The notes below the pieces were generated by a model. The model was given only the letters and a program-made list of their open reading frames with translations, was not told the DNA's origin and searched no databases. DNA of 64,000 nt, from NCBI RefSeq assembly GCF_044324875.1, contig NZ_CP172185.1. The stretch is one strand, 5' to 3'. Made by a program: the position numbers and the translations under genes. Shown here piece by piece: positions 3,178 to 12,881 of the stretch; position 1 is the stretch's first letter, and each line of letters starts with the position of its first letter. Source of the DNA: Escherichia coli (lineage in GTDB: Bacteria; Pseudomonadota; Gammaproteobacteria; Enterobacterales; Enterobacteriaceae).

Positions 3178-3936
3178 TTACTTAACTCCATCCGCGCTCA
3201 TACGATCGCGAATATGCTGGGCGCGTTCGGCGGATGCTGGATGGTCGTCAAACATTGAGCTTTGACGGCCTTCTTCCAGCTTCGCCAGTTTTTCAAAGCT
3301 GGTGGCAAGACCTGCCGGGCTGATGCCGCGTTGGCGCAGAAGATCGTAAGAATAATCATCGGCTTCTGCTTCCTGGCGCTGGGAGAATTGCGAATTAACT
3401 AATTTCTCGCCCAGATCACCGAGTTGTGATTGAGATAAACTGCCGACAATCCCGCCCGCAGAGGCTGCAGCTACTCGCACGGCATTTGTACCAAGTGCCA
3501 CCTGCATCCCTTTCTTCACATGGCCTAACGCCACGTGCCCCATCTCGTGACCGATCACCGCTTCGACTTCGTTATCCGTCATCATATCCATCAGCCCGCT
3601 ATAGACGCGGATACAGCCGTTAGCCATTGCAAAGGCGTTCACATCCTTCGCCATATACACTTTGTAATTCACCGGCTGACCGTTGATATTGTTGCCTAGC
3701 GCATTGGCAATAGTTGTCAGACGTTTAGCGTATTCGCTATTGGCTGGCGCAATCGTCGCCTTGCTATCCATCTCCTGACATGCCTGATCGCTCAGGGTTT
3801 TCACCTGCGCATCACTCAAACTGTAAGCCTGAAAAGCTTCCGCTCCTGATGAGAGCAGTCCGTTGGAGTCCATATTCTGGCAACCGGTCAGTACCGTTGC
3901 CACGCTCATTGCTACCAATAAGGCGCGAATTTTCAT
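3178..3936 (-). CDS. loiP: Periplasmic/outer-membrane M48 metalloprotease LoiP (YggG)
   Basis: Starts MKIRALLVAMSVATVLTGCQ (lipoprotein signal); HEMGH zinc motif; the longer ORF in the track is an upstream extension. Confidence 0.9.
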   Translation of the reverse strand: MKIRALLVAMSVATVLTGCQNMDSNGLLSSGAEAFQAYSLSDAQVKTLSDQACQEMDSKATIAPANSEYAKRLTTIANALGNNINGQPVNYKVYMAKDVNAFAMANGCIRVYSGLMDMMTDNEVEAVIGHEMGHVALGHVKKGMQVALGTNAVRVAAASAGGIVGSLSQSQLGDLGEKLVNSQFSQRQEAEADDYSYDLLRQRGISPAGLATSFEKLAKLEEGRQSSMFDDHPASAERAQHIRDRMSADGVK

Positions 3937-4213: not shown

Positions 4214-6205
4214 ATGTCCTCACGTAAAGAGCTTGCCAATGCTATTCGTGCGCTGAGCATGGACGCAGTACAGAAAGCCAAATCCGGTCACCCGGGTGCC
4301 CCTATGGGTATGGCTGACATTGCCGAAGTCCTGTGGCGTGATTTCCTGAAACACAACCCGCAGAATCCGTCCTGGGCTGACCGTGACCGCTTCGTGCTGT
4401 CCAACGGCCACGGCTCCATGCTGATCTACAGCCTGCTGCACCTCACCGGTTACGATCTGCCGATGGAAGAACTGAAAAACTTCCGTCAGCTGCACTCTAA
4501 AACTCCGGGTCACCCGGAAGTGGGTTACACCGCTGGTGTGGAAACCACCACTGGTCCGCTGGGTCAGGGTATTGCCAACGCAGTCGGTATGGCGATTGCA
4601 GAAAAAACGCTGGCGGCGCAGTTTAACCGTCCGGGCCACGACATTGTCGACCACTACACCTACGCCTTCATGGGTGACGGCTGCATGATGGAAGGCATCT
4701 CCCACGAAGTTTGCTCTCTGGCGGGTACGCTGAAGCTGGGTAAACTGATTGCGTTCTACGATGACAACGGTATCTCTATCGATGGTCACGTTGAAGGCTG
4801 GTTCACCGACGACACCGCAATGCGTTTCGAAGCTTACGGCTGGCACGTTATTCGCGGCATCGACGGTCATGACGCGGCATCCATCAAACGCGCAGTAGAA
4901 GAAGCGCGCGCAGTGACTGACAAACCGTCCCTGCTGATGTGCAAAACCATCATCGGTTTCGGTTCACCGAACAAAGCCGGTACGCACGACTCCCACGGTG
5001 CGCCGCTGGGCGACGCTGAAATCGCCCTGACCCGCGAACAGCTGGGCTGGAAATATGCACCGTTCGAAATCCCGTCTGAAATCTATGCTCAGTGGGATGC
5101 GAAAGAAGCAGGCCAGGCGAAAGAATCCGCATGGAACGAGAAATTCGCTGCTTACGCGAAAGCTTATCCGCAGGAAGCCGCTGAATTTACCCGCCGTATG
5201 AAAGGCGAAATGCCGTCTGACTTCGACGCCAAAGCGAAAGAGTTCATCGCTAAACTGCAGGCTAATCCAGCGAAAATCGCCAGCCGTAAAGCGTCTCAGA
5301 ATGCGATTGAAGCGTTCGGTCCGCTGTTGCCGGAATTCCTCGGCGGCTCTGCTGACCTGGCACCGTCTAACCTGACCCTGTGGTCTGGTTCTAAAGCAAT
5401 CAACGAAGATGCTGCGGGTAACTACATCCACTACGGTGTTCGCGAGTTCGGTATGACCGCGATTGCCAACGGTATCTCCCTGCACGGTGGTTTCCTGCCG
5501 TACACCTCTACCTTCCTGATGTTCGTGGAATACGCACGTAACGCCGTACGTATGGCTGCGTTGATGAAACAGCGTCAGGTTATGGTTTACACCCATGACT
5601 CCATCGGTCTGGGCGAAGATGGCCCGACTCACCAGCCGGTAGAGCAGGTTGCTTCTCTGCGCGTGACCCCGAACATGTCTACATGGCGTCCATGTGACCA
5701 GGTTGAATCTGCAGTGGCATGGAAATACGGTGTTGAGCGTCAGGACGGCCCGACCGCGCTGATCCTCTCCCGTCAGAACCTGGCGCAGCAGGAGCGTACT
5801 GAAGAGCAGCTGGCAAACATCGCGCGCGGTGGTTATGTGCTGAAAGACTGCGCCGGTCAGCCAGAACTGATTTTCATCGCGACCGGTTCGGAAGTTGAAC
5901 TGGCGGTTGCTGCCTACGAAAAACTGACTGCTGAAGGCGTGAAAGCGCGCGTGGTTTCCATGCCGTCTACCGACGCATTCGACAAGCAGGACGCGGCTTA
6001 CCGTGAATCCGTACTGCCGAAAGCGGTTACCGCTCGTGTTGCGGTAGAAGCGGGTATTGCTGACTACTGGTACAAGTATGTTGGCCTGAACGGCGCTATC
6101 GTCGGCATGACCACCTTCGGTGAATCTGCTCCGGCAGAGCAACTGTTTGAAGAGTTCGGCTTCACCGTTGACAACGTTGTTGCGAAAGCAAAAGAACTGC
6201 TGTAA
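4214..6205 (+). CDS. tktA: Transketolase 1
   Basis: 663 aa starting [19 protein letters not shown]; full-length match to TktA. Confidence 0.97.
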
Positions 6206-6218
6206 TCGGTAAGATGCA

Positions 6219-6243
6219 GGGCCGCGAAAGCGGCCCTTTTTTT
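6219..6243 (+). terminator. tktA intrinsic terminator
   Basis: gggccgcGAAAgcggccc hairpin followed by a T7 tract; the stop codon of the convergent SPFH gene lies within the T tract. Confidence 0.7.
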
Positions 6244-7150
6244 ACTTAGTAGAGATAAACGGAACTGTACTGCCGGGGATCATGGTATCGGGCAGCTTAC
6301 CGTCCCAACGCTCTGCAGTGGTTAGGGCAACAAGTCCGGGATTATCCCGCAGAGCTTCACCGCGCAGGCGGATAGCTTCTGCTTCAGCCGCACTTTTTAA
6401 ACGAATAGTTTCAGCCTCTGCCGCGCCTCTTACGCGAATAGTCTCAGCTTCTGCTTTGGCTGCCGCCAGTTTACTGTCTGCTTCTGCCTGGGCCTGAGTT
6501 ACCGCTATTTGCGCCTGGATTTTCTCTGTTTCCAGATTTTGCTTACGTGTGGCAATGGCGACTTCTGCTTTCATTCGGTCTTCAATCGACTTTTCATAAG
6601 CGTCAGAAAAATCAATATTTTCAATCTGAACACCATCAATCACCACCGGGCCAACGACGGCTTTACGCATTGCATTTTGCAGATCCTGAACGAGTTTTGT
6701 ACGATCCTGTACGGCGCTGATGGCGGTATATTGGCCGAAAACGTTCTCCAGTTGAGTTGGCAACTGACGGACAATCAGACGATCTTTTAATGCTTCAATG
6801 GTGTTGTAGGTGGTATAAACCGCGCCTGCTTCTGAAGGTTTAATGTGGAAGCTGACTGATACTGTCATTTGTGCCGGTTGCTGGTCGCGGCTGTAGGCCT
6901 GTAATCCCTGATAAACCACAGCCTGATTACGCGTGGAAATTTTCTCCACGCTTTCCATAAAAGGGATCTTAAAACCCAGCCCCGGCTCGGCAACTTTCAC
7001 GATTTTTCCGTAGCGCAGCAAAATGCCGCGTTCACCTTCATTAACGGTGTAATACGAGAGAAATGGCAGCACAACCACGGCAAGCACGCCAATGACGATA
7101 GCAATAGATTTTTGTGGGCGAAATGAGGTTATTGAAACAGGTGCTTTCAT
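6242..7150 (-). CDS. Band-7/SPFH (prohibitin/HflC-like) membrane protein, apparently accessory
   Basis: 302 aa from ATG at 7150 with an AAGGAAG ribosome-binding site; N-terminal hydrophobic anchor (IAIVIGVLAVVVLPFL); C-terminal Ala/Glu-rich coiled coil with three roughly 11-aa tandem repeats. Confidence 0.7.
   Translation of the reverse strand: MKAPVSITSFRPQKSIAIVIGVLAVVVLPFLSYYTVNEGERGILLRYGKIVKVAEPGLGFKIPFMESVEKISTRNQAVVYQGLQAYSRDQQPAQMTVSVSFHIKPSEAGAVYTTYNTIEALKDRLIVRQLPTQLENVFGQYTAISAVQDRTKLVQDLQNAMRKAVVGPVVIDGVQIENIDFSDAYEKSIEDRMKAEVAIATRKQNLETEKIQAQIAVTQAQAEADSKLAAAKAEAETIRVRGAAEAETIRLKSAAEAEAIRLRGEALRDNPGLVALTTAERWDGKLPDTMIPGSTVPFISTK
6360..6470. repeat. Three tandem ~33-bp repeats inside the SPFH gene
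   Basis: Repeated ...gcgaatagtctcagcttctgc... units encoding AEAETIRVRGA / AEAETIRLKSA / AEAEAIRLRGE. Confidence 0.45.
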
Positions 7151-7186
7151 ATGAATCTTCCTTGAGTAAAGTGGGGAATATGTCAC

Positions 7187-7526
7187 ATGAGGTGAGGAGA
7201 AAATAGCCGACAGGTGAGAATTCAGAATCTATAAAGGGGTATAGCGAAAAAACATTGCATTAAAAAAGTATGTTTTCGGACATTCAATAAATAAATGGCG
7301 ATATGCAGCACAAATACAACAACAATCAAAATGTTGATTTTGTGATAAACATAGCAAATACAAAGTTGACTTTAAAAATATCAATTTCATGTTGTTGTTA
7401 TTTAAAGTTTTATTATTTTTACTCATGGGGTTTTTCTTCTCGCGTACCCAATTGCTTTCATTAAACCGCACGAGTATTTTATTTTTACCGCCGGACGGTA
7501 CCCTAAAAATAAAATAAGGATAATTT
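7187..7526. promoter_or_regulatory. AT-rich divergent intergenic region upstream of cmtB and the SPFH gene
   Basis: About 340 bp with very high AT content and many A/T tracts; presumably carries the promoters of both flanking genes. Confidence 0.3.
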
Positions 7527-7970
7527 ATGCGGTTTATTGATTATTTTCCAGAATCATCAATCTCAGTTATACATTCAGCAAAAGATTGGCAGGAAGCTAT
7601 CGATTTCTCGATGGCATCATTGCTGGATAAAAACTATATCAACGAGAATTACATTCAGGCAATTAAAGATTCCACCATTAACAATGGCCCTTATTATATT
7701 CTCGCGTCAGGTGTGGCAATGCCTCATGCTCGACCGGAATGTGGGGCGCTTAAAACCGGGATGTCTTTAACGTTACTTAAACAAGGTGTTTATTTTCCGG
7801 GGAATGACGAACCGATAAAATTACTCATCGGCCTTTCTGCTGCCGATGCCGATTCGCACATTGGCGCTATTCAGGCGTTAAGTGAATTATTGTGTGAAGA
7901 AGAAATACTCAACCAATTATTAACAGCAGCATCAGAAAAACAATTAGCGGACATTATCAGCCGCGGATAA
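7527..7970 (+). CDS. cmtB: Cryptic mannitol-type PTS enzyme IIA component
   Basis: 147 aa; PTS EIIA(Mtl/Fru) fold with the conserved MPHAR histidine motif; matches CmtB. Confidence 0.9.
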   Translation: MRFIDYFPESSISVIHSAKDWQEAIDFSMASLLDKNYINENYIQAIKDSTINNGPYYILASGVAMPHARPECGALKTGMSLTLLKQGVYFPGNDEPIKLLIGLSAADADSHIGAIQALSELLCEEEILNQLLTAASEKQLADIISRG

Positions 7971-7997
7971 TTACTCTCTCCTCTACAGGATAATATT

Positions 7998-9386
7998 ATG
8001 GAAAACAAGTCTGCTCGTGCAAAGGTCCAGGCTTTTGGGGGTTTTTTGACGGCAATGGTCATCCCCAATATCGGTGCTTTTATTGCCTGGGGCTTTATAA
8101 CTGCGTTATTTATTCCCACCGGTTGGCTGCCGAATGAACATTTCGCCAAAATTGTCGGCCCGATGATTACCTATTTATTGCCCGTGATGATTGGTTCTAC
8201 CGGTGGTCACCTGGTCGGCGGTAAACGCGGCGCGGTCATGGGCGGAATTGGTACGATTGGTGTGATCGTCGGCGCTGAAATCCCGATGTTCCTTGGCTCG
8301 ATGATTATGGGGCCGCTCGGTGGTCTGGTGATTAAATATATCGACAAGGCGCTGGAAAAACGCATACCTGCCGGTTTTGAGATGGTTATCAATAACTTCT
8401 CATTAGGTATCGCGGGGATGCTCCTTTGTCTGCTGGGTTTTGAAGTGATCGGCCCTGCGGTGTTAATTGCCAATACTTTCGTCAAAGAGTGTATTGAGGC
8501 GCTGGTACATGCGGGTTATCTGCCTTTGCTGTCAGTCATCAATGAACCGGCGAAAGTGCTTTTCCTTAATAATGCGATCGATCAGGGCGTCTATTATCCG
8601 CTGGGAATGCAACAGGCATCAGTTAACGGCAAATCCATCTTCTTTATGGTGGCATCCAATCCAGGGCCTGGCCTGGGGCTGCTGCTGGCGTTTACCTTGT
8701 TTGGTAAAGGGATGAGTAAGCGTTCTGCGCCTGGCGCGATGATTATTCACTTCCTCGGTGGGATCCACGAACTGTATTTCCCATATGTGCTGATGAAGCC
8801 ACTGACCATTATTGCCATGATTGCGGGCGGTATGTCTGGCACCTGGATGTTTAACTTACTTGATGGCGGTTTGGTGGCTGGCCCAAGCCCTGGCTCTATT
8901 TTTGCTTACCTGGCACTGACGCCGAAAGGCTCGTTCCTGGCGACAATTGCCGGTGTTACGGTAGGTACCCTGGTGTCCTTTGCTATCACTTCGCTGATAC
9001 TGAAGATGGAAAAAACGGTGGAAACGGAGAGCGAAGATGAGTTTGCTCAGTCAGCCAATGCGGTTAAGGCGATGAAACAAGAGGGTGCATTCTCGTTAAG
9101 CAGGGTTAAGCGTATCGCCTTTGTTTGCGATGCGGGGATGGGCTCCAGCGCGATGGGCGCAACCACCTTCCGTAAACGTCTGGAAAAAGCGGGGCTGGCA
9201 ATTGAAGTAAAACATTACGCGATAGAAAACGTGCCTGCGGATGCGGATATCGTTGTTACTCATGCCAGTCTGGAAGGGCGCGTGAAACGTGTGACGGATA
9301 AACCGCTGATACTGATTAATAACTATATTGGCGATCCAAAACTCGACACTTTATTTAATCAATTAACCGCCGAACATAAAAACTGA
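7998..9386 (+). CDS. cmtA: Cryptic mannitol-type PTS enzyme IICB component
   Basis: 462 aa starting MENKSARAKVQAFGG; multi-pass membrane IIC domain plus a C-terminal IIB domain (CDAGMGSS). Confidence 0.9.
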   Translation: MENKSARAKVQAFGGFLTAMVIPNIGAFIAWGFITALFIPTGWLPNEHFAKIVGPMITYLLPVMIGSTGGHLVGGKRGAVMGGIGTIGVIVGAEIPMFLGSMIMGPLGGLVIKYIDKALEKRIPAGFEMVINNFSLGIAGMLLCLLGFEVIGPAVLIANTFVKECIEALVHAGYLPLLSVINEPAKVLFLNNAIDQGVYYPLGMQQASVNGKSIFFMVASNPGPGLGLLLAFTLFGKGMSKRSAPGAMIIHFLGGIHELYFPYVLMKPLTIIAMIAGGMSGTWMFNLLDGGLVAGPSPGSIFAYLALTPKGSFLATIAGVTVGTLVSFAITSLILKMEKTVETESEDEFAQSANAVKAMKQEGAFSLSRVKRIAFVCDAGMGSSAMGATTFRKRLEKAGLAIEVKHYAIENVPADADIVVTHASLEGRVKRVTDKPLILINNYIGDPKLDTLFNQLTAEHKN

Positions 9387-9400
9387 TTGCCGAGGTAAAA

Positions 9401-10678
9401 ATGAAAACCAAAGTTGCTGCTATTTATGGCAAGCGGGATGTCCGTCTGCGCGAATTTGAACTGCCAGAAATTACCGATAATGAACTGTTAGTGAGTGTAA
9501 TTTCTGACAGCGTCTGTTTATCGACCTGGAAAGCGGCGTTACTCGGTAGTGAACATAAACGCGTACCCGACGATTTAGAAAATCATCCGGTCATTACCGG
9601 GCATGAATGTGCCGGGGTTATTGTTGAAGTGGGTAAAAATCTCACCGGCAAATATAAAAAAGGCCAGCGTTTTGTATTGCAACCGGCGATGGGGTTACCA
9701 AGCGGATATTCAGCGGGCTACAGCTACGAATATTTTGGCGGTAACGCCACCTATATGATTATTCCCGAGATCGCCATTAACCTGGGCTGCGTATTACCGT
9801 ACCACGGCTCTTATTTTGCTGCGGCGTCGCTGGCAGAGCCTATGTGCTGCATTATTGGCGCTTATCATGCCAATTATCACACCACGCAATATGTTTATGA
9901 GCATCGCATGGGCGTTAAACCTGGCGGCAATATTGCGCTGCTGGCGTGTGCAGGTCCGATGGGCATTGGCGCTATCGATTATGCTATTAACGGCGGCATA
10001 CAACCGTCGCGGGTGGTGGTGGTCGATATCGACGACAAACGCCTGGCGCAGGTACAAAAGCTGCTGCCGGTGGAACTGGCGGCCAGTAAAGGCATTGAGC
10101 TGGTGTATGTGAATACCAAAGGGATGAGCGATCCGGTCCAGACGCTGCGGGCGCTGACGGATGATGCCGGATTTGATGACGTATTTGTCTATGCAGCGGT
10201 GCCTTCAGTCGTCGAGATGGCTGATGAATTACTGGCGGAAGATGGCTGCCTGAACTTCTTTGCCGGGCCGACGGATAAAAACTTCAAAGTGCCGTTTAAT
10301 TTCTACAACGTCCATTACAACAGCACGCATGTCGTCGGTACGTCCGGCGGTTCAACGGACGACATGAAAGAGGCGATTGCGCTTAGCGCCACGGGGCAGT
10401 TACAGCCGTCGTTTATGGTGACCCATATCGGTGGCCTGGATGCAGTGCCAGAAACCGTGCTCAATCTGCCGGATATCCCCGGAGGTAAAAAACTCATTTA
10501 TAACGGCGTGACCATGCCGCTGACTGCCATTGCCGATTTTGCCGAAAAAGGCAAAACCGATCCGCTGTTTAAAGAACTGGCGCGGCTGGTTGAGGAAACG
10601 CACGGTATCTGGAATGAACAGGCCGAGAAATATCTGCTGGCGCAATTTGGCGTTGATATTGGGGAGGCCGCGCAATGA
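9401..10678 (+). CDS. yggP: Zn-dependent alcohol/polyol dehydrogenase-like oxidoreductase
   Basis: 425 aa; MDR-family motifs (GHECAG, GxGxxG); position matches yggP. Confidence 0.85.
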   Translation: MKTKVAAIYGKRDVRLREFELPEITDNELLVSVISDSVCLSTWKAALLGSEHKRVPDDLENHPVITGHECAGVIVEVGKNLTGKYKKGQRFVLQPAMGLPSGYSAGYSYEYFGGNATYMIIPEIAINLGCVLPYHGSYFAAASLAEPMCCIIGAYHANYHTTQYVYEHRMGVKPGGNIALLACAGPMGIGAIDYAINGGIQPSRVVVVDIDDKRLAQVQKLLPVELAASKGIELVYVNTKGMSDPVQTLRALTDDAGFDDVFVYAAVPSVVEMADELLAEDGCLNFFAGPTDKNFKVPFNFYNVHYNSTHVVGTSGGSTDDMKEAIALSATGQLQPSFMVTHIGGLDAVPETVLNLPDIPGGKKLIYNGVTMPLTAIADFAEKGKTDPLFKELARLVEETHGIWNEQAEKYLLAQFGVDIGEAAQ

Positions 10679-11640
10679 TGTCCCTGGCGTGGCCATTATT
10701 TCGCGTTACGGAACAGGCAGCGTTGGCTGCCTGGCCGCAAACCGGATGTGGCGACAAAAATAAAATTGATGGCCTGGCGGTCACCGCGATGCGCCAGGCA
10801 TTAAACGACGTCGCTTTTCGTGGGCGAGTGGTTATCGGCGAGGGAGAGATTGACCATGCGCCGATGCTGTGGATTGGCGAAGAGGTGGGCAAAGGCGATG
10901 GGCCAGAAGTCGATATCGCGGTTGATCCCATTGAAGGTACGCGGATGGTGGCGATGGGGCAGAGCAATGCGCTGGCGGTCATGGCTTTCGCACCTCGGGA
11001 TAGCCTGTTACATGCGCCCGATATGTATATGAAAAAGCTGGTTGTTAATCGACAGGCTGCCGGGGCGATTGATCTGTCTTTGCCTCTGGCGGACAACTTG
11101 CGAAACGTGGCGAAAGCGTTAGGCAAACCGCTGGACAAACTGCGCATGGTTACGCTGGATAAACCGCGCCTGAGTACCGCAATTGAGGAAGCAACACAGC
11201 TGGGCGTGAAGGTTTTTGCCCTGCCGGATGGCGATGTCGCCGCCAGCGTGCTGACCTGCTGGCAGGATAATCCTTACGATGTGATGTACACCATCGGCGG
11301 TGCGCCGGAGGGCGTGATTTCTGCCTGTGCCGTTAAAGCATTAGGCGGGGATATGCAGGCCGAGCTGATTGACTTTTGTCAGGCTAAAGGGGATTACACG
11401 GAAAATCGGCAGATTGCAGAGCAGGAGCGCAAGCGTTGCAAGGAAATGGGCGTTGACGTTAACCGTGTGTACTCGCTCGATGAACTGGTGAGGGGGAACG
11501 ATATCCTCTTTAGCGCTACGGGCGTGACGGGCGGCGAGTTGGTGAACGGTATCCAACAGACGGCGAATGGGGTGCGGACGCAGACATTACTGATCGGCGG
11601 CGCGGACCAAACGTGTAATATAATAGACTCCCTGCATTGA
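10675..11640 (+). CDS. yggF: Fructose-1,6-bisphosphatase class II (GlpX paralog)
   Basis: 321 aa starting MMSLAWPLFRVTEQAALAA; GlpX-family; start overlaps the yggP stop. Confidence 0.9.
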   Translation: MMSLAWPLFRVTEQAALAAWPQTGCGDKNKIDGLAVTAMRQALNDVAFRGRVVIGEGEIDHAPMLWIGEEVGKGDGPEVDIAVDPIEGTRMVAMGQSNALAVMAFAPRDSLLHAPDMYMKKLVVNRQAAGAIDLSLPLADNLRNVAKALGKPLDKLRMVTLDKPRLSTAIEEATQLGVKVFALPDGDVAASVLTCWQDNPYDVMYTIGGAPEGVISACAVKALGGDMQAELIDFCQAKGDYTENRQIAEQERKRCKEMGVDVNRVYSLDELVRGNDILFSATGVTGGELVNGIQQTANGVRTQTLLIGGADQTCNIIDSLH

Positions 11641-11661
11641 TGGTGATCTATCGGAAGACCA

Positions 11662-12171
11662 ATGGCGACGCTGACAGAAGATGATGTGCTTGAGCAACTG
11701 GAGGCACAGGACAATTTATTTTCATTTATGAAAACGGCGCATTCTATTTTGCTCCAGGGGATACGCCAGTTTCTACCGTCGCTGTTTGTCGATAACGATG
11801 AAGAGATCGTCGAATATGCAGTGAAGCCGTTACTCGCCCAAAGCGGCCCGCTTGACGATATTGATGTTGCACTGCGTTTGATTTATGCGCTGGGGAAAAT
11901 GGATAAATGGCTGTACGCCGATATCACGCACTTTTCCCAGTTCTGGCATTACCTGAACGAACAGAATGAAATGCCCGGATTTGCCGATGATATGACCTGG
12001 GATTTTATCAGCAACGTCAATAGCATAACCCGCAATGCGACGCTCTATGACGCGTTGAAAGCGATGAAGTTCGCCGATTTCGCCGTCTGGTCAGAGGCGC
12101 GTTTTAGCGGGATGGTCAAAACGGCGCTGACGCTGGCAGTAACGACCACCTTAAAGGAATTAACGCCGTGA
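11662..12171 (+). CDS. yggD: MtlR-like transcriptional regulator
   Basis: 169 aa; matches YggD in sequence and position. Confidence 0.85.
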   Translation: MATLTEDDVLEQLEAQDNLFSFMKTAHSILLQGIRQFLPSLFVDNDEEIVEYAVKPLLAQSGPLDDIDVALRLIYALGKMDKWLYADITHFSQFWHYLNEQNEMPGFADDMTWDFISNVNSITRNATLYDALKAMKFADFAVWSEARFSGMVKTALTLAVTTTLKELTP

Positions 12172-12881
12172 AAATTGAATTAACGGTGAATGGTCTGAAG
12201 GTACAAGCACAGTACCATGTTGATGAGATAGAAAATGTACATAAACCGTTGCTGCGCATGTTGGCGGCCTTACAGACGGTAAATCCGCAGCGGCGTACGG
12301 TGGTTTTTCTTTGCGCTCCGCCGGGGACGGGTAAATCTACCCTAACCACCTTCTGGGAATATCTCGCGCAACAAGACCCGGAACTACCCGCTATACAGAC
12401 GCTGCCGATGGATGGTTTTCACCATTACAATAGCTGGCTGGATGCGCATCAATTGCGCCCCTTCAAAGGCGCACCAGAGACATTCAATGTAGCGAAACTG
12501 GCGGAAAACCTGCGCCAGGTCGTGGAAGGGGATTGTACGTGGCCACAGTACGATCGACAAAAGCATGATCCTGTTGAAGATGCGTTGCACGTTACCGCAC
12601 CACTCGTCATCGTCGAAGGAAACTGGTTGTTACTGGATGATGAAAAGTGGCAGGAGTTGGCATCTTTCTGCGATTTTTCTATTTTTATTCATGCACCTGC
12701 TCAAATTCTGCGGGAGCGCTTGATTAGTCGTAAAATTGCGGGAGGATTATCGCGGCAAGAAGCCGAAGCTTTTTATGCCCGAACCGATGGTCCCAATGTC
12801 GAGCGTGTGCTGGTGAATAGTCGTCAGGCCAATCTGATAGTAGAGATGACCGAAGAAGGCAGATATCACTTCAAAAGCTGA
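12168..12881 (+). CDS. yggC: P-loop NTPase/kinase family protein
   Basis: 237 aa; Walker A (PPGTGKST); 4-nt overlap with yggD. Confidence 0.85.
   Translation: MKIELTVNGLKVQAQYHVDEIENVHKPLLRMLAALQTVNPQRRTVVFLCAPPGTGKSTLTTFWEYLAQQDPELPAIQTLPMDGFHHYNSWLDAHQLRPFKGAPETFNVAKLAENLRQVVEGDCTWPQYDRQKHDPVEDALHVTAPLVIVEGNWLLLDDEKWQELASFCDFSIFIHAPAQILRERLISRKIAGGLSRQEAEAFYARTDGPNVERVLVNSRQANLIVEMTEEGRYHFKS

Follow-up and report, generated by a model that had tools for sequence, protein, structure and literature searches.

Genes and signals between tktA and cmtB

The window analysed here, a stretch of 64,000 nucleotides of Escherichia coli DNA, carries tktA at positions 4214–6205 and, convergent with it on the minus strand, an open reading frame at 6242–7150. 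This reading frame encodes a 302-residue SPFH or 'prohibitin family' protein, as judged from the ORF list, Pfam Band_7, RefSeq orthologues and dN/dS, and an earlier note on this DNA had correctly described its length and convergent arrangement. The gene is flanked by tktA, loiP, speB and cmtBA-yggP. Its length of 302 aa results from the ATG at 7150, which is also the start used by homologues, whose N-termini read MK.... A Shine-Dalgarno sequence, AAGGAAG (7157–7163, minus strand), can be read 6 nt 5′ of this ATG, and the block containing it, TTTACTCAAGGAAGA, is kept in Escherichia sequences, almost so in Klebsiella, and is more diverged in Kluyvera. GC content is 44–57% in the SPFH gene versus 51–61% in tktA.

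A terminator scan located the intrinsic terminator of tktA at 6218–6243 on the plus strand. Its hairpin at 6218–6237 consists of an 8-bp GC-rich stem with a GAAA loop (AGGGCCGC-GAAA-GCGGCCCT) and is followed by a T-run up to 6243. The TAA stop codon of the SPFH gene is the complement of 6242–6244 and shares the last two T's of this T-run, as had been noticed before. The hairpin is kept in NY1601, O145:H28, JNE25-001 and E. albertii.

The spacer that separates the SPFH gene from the divergent cmtB (7151–7526), delimited by GC profile and alignment to K-12, is AT-rich, with a GC content of 29–36% over about 7100–7600. The earlier note had taken this as a hint of a silenced promoter. The AT-richness itself stands, but since the spacer is common to cmtB, and K-12 has it too despite lacking the gene, it is not specific to the SPFH gene. 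Positions of about 7450–7526 are nearly identical to K-12, and a further 45 bp or so (7271–7316) have weak homology to K-12 (local alignment score 32 versus 19.7 ± 2.7 for shuffled sequences). No consensus sigma-70 sites were found on either strand of 6100–7600, where 2.3 are expected by chance, and Rfam gave no match at E ≤ 1 over 5900–7800. A weak candidate promoter upstream of the SPFH gene, TTGAAT-N17-TTTAAT, was spotted by eye. Comparison of upstream regions also revealed a palindrome, ATTCAGAAT, at 7220–7228, about 70–78 nt 5′ of the start codon. The block ATTCnGAATT at this palindrome is kept in E. coli (including the window), Kluyvera and Klebsiella; the copy in E. albertii is diverged (ATCCTAATT, 7/9 match).

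No NfeD partner gene adjoins the SPFH gene, whose neighbours are tktA and cmtB, and across 80 related loci no neighbouring family was shared beyond a single genus. The lack of NfeD had been noticed earlier and set against qmcA-ybbJ and yqiJK. This contrast is uninformative, since being without NfeD is the norm for HflK/C and prohibitin-type SPFH proteins: Hinderhofer et al. (2009; PMC2636767) found no NfeD for the HflK/C and p-prohibitin subfamilies.

SPFH domain, long helix and conserved tail

An HMM search matched the protein to Pfam PF01145 (Band_7) with E = 5.6e-32, covering model positions 2–176 of 176, and together with Foldseek placed the SPFH domain at residues 35–210 (6521–7048, minus strand). 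The AF2 monomer model, with a mean pLDDT of 82, has a transmembrane helix and an alpha/beta domain followed by a long helix. When it was compared to known structures by Foldseek, the top matches were all SPFH cage subunits (HflC 7vhq_G, 1.5e-17; prohibitin 8rrh, 4e-15; erlin, HflK, stomatin and QmcA), and E-values spanned 1e-17 to 1e-9 over HflC, HflK, PHB, erlin, stomatin, QmcA and flotillin. Domain and fold of the protein match the SPFH superfamily, which bears out the band-7 and HflC/prohibitin-like identity proposed at first sight.

With regard to the subfamily, a sequence search against the PDB gave the best matches to HflC (1.8e-13) and HflK (7.5e-11); QmcA (8z5g_A) reached 7.8e-7, and prohibitins only 4e-5 and 4.5e-4. 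Although RefSeq names the protein 'prohibitin family protein', this search ranks HflC/HflK far above prohibitin. The equivalog models were not reached, neither for HflC (TIGR01932, 60.5 bits versus a cut-off of 134.4; NF008259, 53.3 versus 427) nor for HflK (TIGR01933, 37.4 bits versus 159.4; NF008181, 34.6 versus 660). Since these cut-offs were missed by far, a link to FtsH cannot be transferred by orthology. The flotillin model FloT (NF058507) was not reached either (17.3 bits versus 700), and no partner gene was seen. A pair of adjoining paralogues of the hflK-hflC type was found neither at the window locus nor beside any of the 80 related loci. The architecture, an SPFH gene that stands alone without NfeD and whose product has an N-terminal anchor, is that of prokaryotic prohibitins (SPFH4).

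The SPFH domain leads into a continuous helix of 87 residues (residues 183–269; 6344–6604, minus strand), which presumably forms the wall in a ring or cage of SPFH proteins and has a pLDDT of 82–94 over most of its length. Autocorrelation has maxima at lags of 11 (z = 5.5) and 22 residues (z = 5.2), with no peak at lag 7. The periodicity corresponds to three tandem units of 11 aa or 33 bp, AEAETIRVRGA, AEAETIRLKSA and AEAEAIRLRGE (6356–6454, minus strand), which are preceded by a fourth, degenerate unit at 6455–6487 on the same strand. The earlier note had described three tandem DNA repeats of about 33 bp. Their number and spacing were confirmed (a repeat search found copies spaced 33 bp within 6374–6493, with 73–83% identity), but they are not crisp DNA repeats: unit-by-unit comparison gave DNA identities of 79%, 64% and 58%, and Tandem Repeats Finder (minimum score 30) called no 33-bp period. 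A comparison of copy number between homologues, suggested in the same note, was carried out and showed three units in Escherichia and two in other genera, with one E. albertii variant being 22 aa shorter. Judging from the sequences, the 33-bp repeats are old, degenerate hendecad units and no recent array.

Homologue alignment defined a conserved C-terminal module, residues 270–302 (6245–6343, minus strand), with the pattern ...AERWDGKLPxTMIPGxxVPFI... and six residues that are invariant in 41 homologues (W282, G284, L286, P287, P292 and P297). It matches PHROG 38808 and is common to prophage SPFH proteins. The C-terminal 27 residues have a pLDDT below 50 in the AF2 monomer model. The hendecad periodicity and this conserved tail are compatible with assembly into a ring or cage, but do not prove it.

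Distribution, selection and relatives on mobile elements

NCBI (PGAP) annotates a 'prohibitin family protein' between tkt and cmtB, just as here, in 1,818 of the 5,426 complete E. coli genomes. Carriers include ST131, Nissle 1917, 536, UM146, NC101 and E2348/69-type O127:H6, generally placed in phylogroup B2; the gene is absent from MG1655, BL21 and O157:H7, generally placed in phylogroups A and E. The absence from K-12 agrees with the earlier note: tktA (b2935) directly adjoins cmtB (b2934) in MG1655, with a spacer of 313 bp, and BL21 is alike. When the BL21 spacer was searched by tblastn with the protein, no remnant of the gene turned up in this K-12-type interval. In E. albertii, E. whittamii, Pseudocitrobacter and Kluyvera, orthologues run convergently to tkt; in Klebsiella spallanzanii the orthologue is found on its epd side. 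The synteny with tkt in other genera points to an ancestral gene, which was most likely lost from K-12 and K-12-type E. coli. Two CFT073 locus tags were set aside: c3522 is speB, and c3518 is a hypothetical ORF that is discussed solely for its RU-3 repeat.

Values of dN/dS for the SPFH gene among Escherichia, Pseudocitrobacter and Kluyvera were 0.009–0.063, versus 0.015–0.047 for tkt. Values as low as those of tkt argue that the gene is not decaying and is maintained by selection. Lineages with a DNA identity of only about 92% encode proteins that are 99% identical, and in a 40-row sample of E. coli genomes every row with full coverage aligned the whole gene in one piece (909 bases; 908 in O127:H6). 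These data bear on the view of the gene as a remnant, silenced or in decay, which no longer adds to fitness. Such a remnant could account for the AT-rich upstream region, for the failure to find a consensus sigma-70 promoter and for the two thirds of E. coli genomes that are without the gene and show no obvious harm. Given the intact reading frame, the low dN/dS and the conserved protein, and as the AT-rich spacer also exists in gene-less K-12, where it serves cmtB, we consider this highly improbable.

Relatives of the protein are widespread on mobile elements. Those with 60–74% identity are encoded on conjugative plasmids and an ICE, those with 45–53% identity in jumbo phages and phage Skarpretter, and the strongest PHROG match is phrog_200 (4e-63). 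The SPFH proteins of PHROG 200, of the jumbo phages GAP32, fHe-Yen9-04 and Serratia BF and of Enterobacter and Pseudomonas plasmids have the same architecture, with 45–74% identity over residues 30–302. In Stx2a prophages and P88, a gene near int/xis encodes an SPFH protein of 275 aa that has the same C-terminal module, and the motif AIRLRGEALRxNPG...W(D/N)GxLP...PFI is common to the window protein and even divergent prophage proteins.

Together with the variable presence within E. coli, these relatives would suit an accessory gene derived from a mobile element, whose role would lie in conflict with phages or plasmids, for instance in superinfection exclusion, in defence against phages or in manipulating FtsH-dependent phage decisions. 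We nevertheless regard this origin and role as unlikely. A lone gene is present between tktA and cmtB, with no integrase, tRNA or flanking direct repeats, its GC content is close to that of the genes around it, and its position beside tkt is conserved across four genera. For the same reasons, a recently inserted island was rejected. Purifying selection as strong as that on tkt makes it look like a long-resident chromosomal gene. PADLOC-DB v2 gave no defence family at E ≤ 1 and there is no defence island, the flanks being housekeeping or sugar-uptake genes, so that the link to defence about which the earlier note had speculated found no footing. Whereas the phage and plasmid copies reside on mobile elements and some of them are lipoproteins, the window gene has a chromosomal location with synteny across genera, and its product is TM-anchored and has no cysteine. 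To our knowledge, the phage and plasmid SPFH relatives likewise are without a demonstrated function.

Topology and a possible periplasmic cage

The sole hydrophobic segment of the protein, residues 15–32 (7055–7108, minus strand), is predicted to be a signal-anchor or transmembrane helix with the N-terminus inside. It is covered by the AF2 helix at residues 12–32, in agreement with the membrane anchor proposed in the earlier note. The net charge of its flanks is about +1.9 before and about −0.1 after the segment, and an N-in orientation is favoured in 37 of the 41 homologues, although the bias is modest (K+R 2.5 before versus 2.0 after). The transmembrane segment and the juxtamembrane sequence EGERGxxLRxGK align residue by residue with HflC, from HflC residue 6 on, and the orientation of HflK/C is periplasmic (cited in Hinderhofer et al., PMC2636767). 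In addition, 9 of 120 homologues have a lipobox cysteine exactly at the border between TM and SPFH domain, which implies that the domain is exported.

The opposite topology would be that of a cytoplasm-facing scaffold like QmcA or YqiK, organising the inner leaflet of the membrane; YqiK has a cytoplasmic orientation. QmcA is a detectable relative by sequence and by Foldseek (3e-12), and the charge bias around the TM segment is not extreme. However, the similarity to HflC/HflK is 4–6 orders of magnitude stronger than that to QmcA and includes the TM-proximal segment, a NfeD partner is missing, net charge favours N-in, and those family members that are lipobox proteins are necessarily exported. 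We therefore give the cytoplasmic arrangement little chance.

The reading we favour, and hold to be probable, is that the gene is a functional single-gene member of the HflK/C-prohibitin branch of SPFH proteins whose product forms a periplasm-facing, homo-oligomeric ring or cage. One N-terminal helix would anchor the protein in the inner membrane with its N-terminus in the cytoplasm, and the parts that follow (SPFH domain, hendecad helix of 87 residues, conserved C-terminal tail) would be periplasmic. As the gene is single and not part of an hflK-hflC pair, any complex should be homo-oligomeric. A ring or cage like the solved HflK/C, prohibitin, QmcA, stomatin, erlin and flotillin assemblies seems most likely, in which the SPFH domains would rest on the membrane, the long helices, packed against one another, would make up the wall, and the top would be closed by the C-terminal tails. 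Such a cage may fence off a patch of inner membrane plus the proteins inside it. By analogy with HflK/C and mitochondrial prohibitin, the most plausible clients would be FtsH or other substrates of inner-membrane quality control. The third 11-residue unit, specific to Escherichia, would add three helical turns (about 16 Å) to the wall helix and leave its register unchanged.

Among known SPFH systems, HflC and HflK, the modulators of FtsH (7vhp, 7wi3, 9cz2), are the best matches by sequence and fold; they share the N-terminal TM segment followed by EGERGxxLRFGK, the SPFH domain, the long Ala/Glu-rich helix, the predicted periplasmic side and the lack of NfeD. Unlike the single window gene they are encoded by paired genes, an HflC insertion in the SPFH domain is missing from the window protein, and the conserved tail ERWDGKLP...PFI is the window protein's own. 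Prokaryotic prohibitins (SPFH4) and mitochondrial PHB1/PHB2 (8rrh, 9o9z) resemble it in the PGAP name, the stand-alone gene without NfeD, the Foldseek match to the human prohibitin complex and the predicted orientation to the periplasm, which corresponds to the intermembrane space, whereas the sequence similarity to solved prohibitins is weak and far below that to HflC/HflK. QmcA-YbbJ and YqiK-YqiJ, the other two SPFH systems of K-12, belong to the same superfamily and share the fold (QmcA cage, 8z5g), but are paired with NfeD, while the window gene has no NfeD neighbour and its product is predicted to face the periplasm. QmcA faces the cytoplasm (Hinderhofer et al. 2009; PMC2636767).

Annotations of the gene and its family already exist in thousands of public genomes, and every feature that was flagged as odd is normal for this branch of SPFH proteins. 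We know of no bacterial prohibitin-type SPFH protein with an assigned function, and no study or experiment on the SPFH protein between tktA and cmtB was found in the searchable literature. Shewanella SO1377 presumably belongs to the YqiK-like COG2268 group. Mentioned in PMC2636767, it was set aside as a member of a different subfamily. PM0222 of Pasteurella multocida is a prophage-encoded, HflK/C-like virulence factor (PMC9872710) and may be a relative of the window protein; no homology is claimed.

E. coli strains that carry the gene are expected to possess HflK/C as well, both being SPFH proteins described for E. coli, so that the window protein and HflK/C could be redundant or divergent in function. 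Counting against the favoured reading, the close relatives on plasmids, ICEs and phages fit a more conditional, accessory role. According to Hinderhofer et al. (PMC2636767), SPFH4 proteins rarely co-occur with HflK/C. A tentative and rather doubtful extension is that E. coli is naturally polymorphic, on or off, for a fifth SPFH protein, which would build a 'bacterial prohibitin' cage, homo-oligomeric and facing the periplasm, beside HflK/C. If this were true, the cage would corral a set of inner-membrane clients of its own, among them possibly a sub-pool of FtsH, and lineages would differ in how they control envelope quality, tolerate stress or colonise a host. The hendecad repeats would set the height of the cage in 11-residue steps, and the same module would have been borrowed by phages and plasmids for manipulating the membrane of their host.

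As a discovery the gene carries little weight; it is a reminder that K-12 is without a strongly conserved SPFH protein of many pathogenic and probiotic E. coli. Natural polymorphism in presence, combined with the lack of an assigned function for prohibitin-type SPFH proteins, makes it a convenient genetic system in which to study the function of a stand-alone SPFH cage in the periplasm and whether it overlaps with HflK/C-FtsH.

Layout of the tktA-cmtB interval

The interval 6206-7526 is flanked by tktA (4214-6205) and cmtB (7527-7970), both on the plus strand, and the ORF list contains a single convincing gene in it, the SPFH gene at 6242-7150 on the minus strand. Translation is assigned to the ATG at 7150, with AAGGAAG six bases upstream, and yields 302 aa with an N-terminus that agrees with those of the homologues. 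Two further mechanical ORFs look like artefacts of composition: one of 80 aa (7229-7471, minus strand) in the AT-rich spacer is of low complexity and rich in Asn and Lys, and one of 71 aa (6282-6497, plus strand), antisense to the Ala/Glu repeat region, is rich in Ala, Ser and Arg.

The terminator scan placed the tktA terminator (plus strand) as a stem-loop at 6218-6237, with a GAAA loop on an 8-bp GC-rich stem (AGGGCCGC/GCGGCCCT) and a T-run to 6243. The TAA stop codon of the SPFH gene is the complement of 6242-6244 on the minus strand and overlaps the end of this T-run, as the earlier note had recognized. In other strains, one or two copies of a unit of about 174 bp lie between the tkt stop and the SPFH stop (about 650-825 of the locus from O145:H28 RM12581, about 650-1000 of that from E. 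coli JNE25-001, and also in E. albertii); the window (6218-6243) and strain NY1601 have zero copies. The unit consists of REP/BIME-like palindromes, and every copy ends with a further terminator hairpin, AGGGCCGCGAAAGCGGCCCT. These palindromes look like the 103-bp RU-3 element of Delihas 2007 (PMC2759123), where one RU-3 is located within the hypothetical CFT073 ORF c3518.

The spacer between the SPFH gene and cmtB has 376 bp and a GC content of 29-36%. The earlier note had singled out the AT-rich upstream region as a peculiarity, but it proved to be ordinary. Neither Rfam families nor, by scanning, consensus sigma-70 sites were found in the interval. A palindrome, ATTCAGAAT, is present at 7220-7228, about 70-78 nt upstream of the ATG of the SPFH gene, and may be a binding site for a regulator. 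This ATTCnGAAT(T) motif is among the few upstream blocks that are largely conserved in the window/E. coli, Kluyvera and Klebsiella orthologues; its counterpart in E. albertii is a 7-of-9 variant, ATCCTAATT.

Family, predicted topology and proposed assembly of the SPFH protein

Pfam Band_7/SPFH matched residues 35-210 over the entire model (E=5.6e-32). Among solved proteins, the nearest by sequence were HflC (1.8e-13) and HflK (7.5e-11), with weaker matches to QmcA (7.8e-7), a prohibitin (4.3e-5), PHB2 (4.5e-4) and stomatin (1.6e-3). In an AlphaFold model (mean pLDDT 82) based on 41 homologues, residues 12-32 are helical, 33-181 make up an alpha/beta domain, 183-269 run as one unbroken helix, and 276-302 are a tail of low confidence. 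The top matches of this model in a Foldseek comparison with the PDB were SPFH cage subunits only (HflC 1.5e-17, human prohibitin 4e-15, then erlin, HflK, stomatin, QmcA, flotillin and major vault protein). By domain and by fold the window protein is thus a member of the SPFH superfamily, and the description of the gene in the earlier note was accurate.

The protein scored 60.5 bits with the HflC model (cut-off 134.4) and 37.4 bits with the HflK model (cut-off 159.4), and was rejected as an orthologue of either. Identities as HflC, HflK, QmcA or flotillin were all discarded on the tested cut-offs, which were not reached, or partner genes, which were not found. RefSeq uses the name "prohibitin family protein"; the sequence is nearer to HflC/HflK than to the solved prohibitins.

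The single hydrophobic segment (residues 15-32) and the lack of any cysteine identify an uncleaved signal-anchor protein and exclude a lipoprotein. Three lines of evidence favour an N-in, C-out topology in which most of the protein is periplasmic. The TM and the residues next to it can be aligned directly with HflC, a protein that faces the periplasm (Hinderhofer et al. 2009, PMC2636767). The net charge is about +1.9 before the TM versus about -0.1 after it, a bias shared by 37 of 41 homologues. Finally, in 9 of 120 homologues a lipobox (LSGC or IFGC) replaces the end of the TM anchor, 4-5 residues before EGERG, as in the Erwinia sequence ...LVLSGC|FTISEGERG and the repeatedly found ...IFGC|IYTVDEGERA; a cysteine in this position, where TM and SPFH domain meet, implies that the domain is exported. 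F or I, and not D, follows the cysteine, so that some family members probably are lipoproteins and may be sorted to the outer membrane. PHROG 200, which the window protein matches at 4e-63, is labelled "lipoprotein".

The whole 87-residue helix has an 11-residue periodicity (lag 11 z=5.5, lag 22 z=5.2) and no heptad signal (lag 7 z=1.0). Its C-terminal part contains three 11-residue units, AEAETIRVRGA, AEAETIRLKSA and AEAEAIRLRGE (6356-6454, minus strand), preceded by a fourth, weaker one, AEADSKLAAAK. The tandem repeats of about 33 bp reported in the earlier note are real, and a repeat search detected the 33-bp spacing, but they are old rather than remarkable: the units are 79%, 64% and 58% identical at the DNA level, and Tandem Repeats Finder did not score them. 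Three units are present in Escherichia (E. coli, E. albertii) and two in the Klebsiella, Kluyvera, Kosakonia, Mixta, Erwinia, Salmonella and Pseudomonas relatives, while one E. albertii variant is shorter by exactly 22 residues. In the sampled E. coli genomes, all full-coverage rows showed the SPFH gene as a single uninterrupted full-length alignment (909 bases; 908 in O127:H6). Length steps correspond to one hendecad, which would keep the register of the helix.

The fold matches that of ring- or cage-forming SPFH proteins, and the hendecad helix and the invariant residues of the C-terminal tail (W282, G284, L286, P287, P292, P297) fit the same plan. Together with the predicted topology this suggests that the protein forms a homo-oligomeric SPFH cage on the periplasmic side of the inner membrane, which by analogy would fence in membrane proteins such as FtsH.

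Distribution and ancestry of the gene

A megablast search of 5,426 complete E. coli genomes revealed the SPFH gene at the tkt-cmtB locus in 1,818 of them, always annotated as "prohibitin family protein". The gene is hence already known from public genomes, and literature searches found no published experiment on its product. Carriers include O25b:H4-ST131, Nissle 1917, UPEC 536, UM146, NC101, APEC O2:K1:H7, O127:H6 and O145:H28. The gene is absent from BL21(DE3), from the O157:H7 strains sampled and from MG1655, where tktA (b2935) and cmtB (b2934) are 313 bp apart. The absence from K-12 proposed in the earlier note is thus correct, but is ordinary and not the oddity it implied.

In the absence haplotype, about 230 bp replace the stretch from just past the tktA stop codon to about position 7450 of the window, and the tktA terminator is a different one, AAAAAGGTCGCTTCGGCGACCTTTTTT (3307-3360 of the BL21 locus, L002; also in the MG1655 locus, L098). 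Identity to the window is about 96% in the flanking genes, whereas the spacer is almost unalignable: homology is recognizable solely over 45 bp (window 7271-7316; score 32 versus 19.7 +/- 2.7 for shuffles), and no trace of the SPFH ORF is left. The two arrangements look like old haplotypes, not like the outcome of a recent clean deletion.

Orthologues convergent with tkt occur in E. albertii, E. whittamii, Escherichia sp. MOD1, Pseudocitrobacter (85% aa identity) and Kluyvera (82%); the Klebsiella spallanzanii copy is on the epd side. Kluyvera has the order epd-SPFH-tkt and lacks the cmt operon, so the SPFH-tkt adjacency recurs across genera with or without cmt genes. The most economical reading of these comparisons is that the gene is ancestral and was lost in K-12-type lineages. 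Its dN/dS values against the Escherichia, Pseudocitrobacter and Kluyvera orthologues are 0.009-0.063, and those of tkt in the same genomes 0.015-0.047.

No complete E. coli genome matches the core genes of the window at more than 98.7% identity. The SPFH locus shares 97.6% identity with that of E. coli NY1601 and about 92% with that of E. whittamii, and the gene is 99.9% identical to the copy of an O158:H23 strain. These values place the window in E. coli sensu lato, in a lineage without an exact counterpart in the collections searched. A 100% identical protein, in DNA that is only 97.3% identical, is encoded by NZ_CP134663.1 (E. coli 64A:C, gull cloaca), a 4.9-Mb replicon that PLSDB lists as "plasmid unnamed1" and that is evidently a chromosome.

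Gene partners, defence and mobile relatives

We collected 80 related loci from one-genome-per-species contigs (Escherichia, Pseudocitrobacter, Enterobacter, Mixta, Shewanella, Pseudomonas, Cellvibrio, Yersinia, Brucella, Rhizobium and others) and clustered the flanking ORFs all-against-all. No neighbour family was common to more than one genus, which agrees with the earlier note on the missing NfeD partner. This lack is not an oddity, since Hinderhofer et al. (PMC2636767) assign NfeD partners to the stomatin-, flotillin- and YqfA-type subfamilies only, and none to HflK/C or p-prohibitins (SPFH4), so that a gene without NfeD follows the rule for its branch. The same paper states that p-prohibitins and HflK/C rarely co-occur; if the window protein is a p-prohibitin, E. 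coli carriers are exceptions to this rarity. The link to defence, offered earlier as speculation, gained nothing from PADLOC, which returned no match for the SPFH protein.

A conflict-related role of the window gene is possible, given its relatives on plasmids, ICEs and phages, although the gene itself bears no marks of mobile insertion. Plasmid relatives were found in Enterobacter, Kosakonia and Pseudomonas, and the plasmid and ICE relatives overall are 58-74% identical. More distant members, with 64-72% identity, are on a Salmonella conjugative plasmid and on an integrative element in the K. oxytoca chromosome. The former adjoins type IV secretion genes, lying directly upstream of a VirB-type cluster (4982-12372 of the plasmid contig, L012). 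The K. oxytoca element also carries ArdC, CbtA-like and methyltransferase genes, and its SPFH relative adjoins a DUF2913 gene. The mobile copies may thus contribute to conjugative transfer or to establishment.

Phage relatives with 45-53% identity are present in jumbo phages (GAP32, fHe-Yen9-04, Serratia BF and Erwinia phages), in Rhizobium phages and in the Escherichia phage Skarpretter; N4 gp20 is related more remotely (27%). The early region of lambdoid Stx2a-converting prophages, and likewise that of the P2-like phage P88, contains a gene for a 275-aa Band_7 protein close to int/xis (1871-2698 of the Stx2_EH1846 locus, 1868-2698 of the P88 locus; Pfam 1.7e-30). Annotations of this protein vary between "serine protease" and "putative SPFH domain protein"; the former label is unsupported, as the Pfam scan gave only Band_7 and a weak flotillin match. 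What it shares with the window protein is mainly a C-terminal module, ...AIRLRGEALRxNPG...W(D/N)GxLP...PFI.K, with about 50% identity over the last 65 or so residues, while the SPFH domain is far more diverged. The last 58 residues of the window protein also match PHROG 38808.
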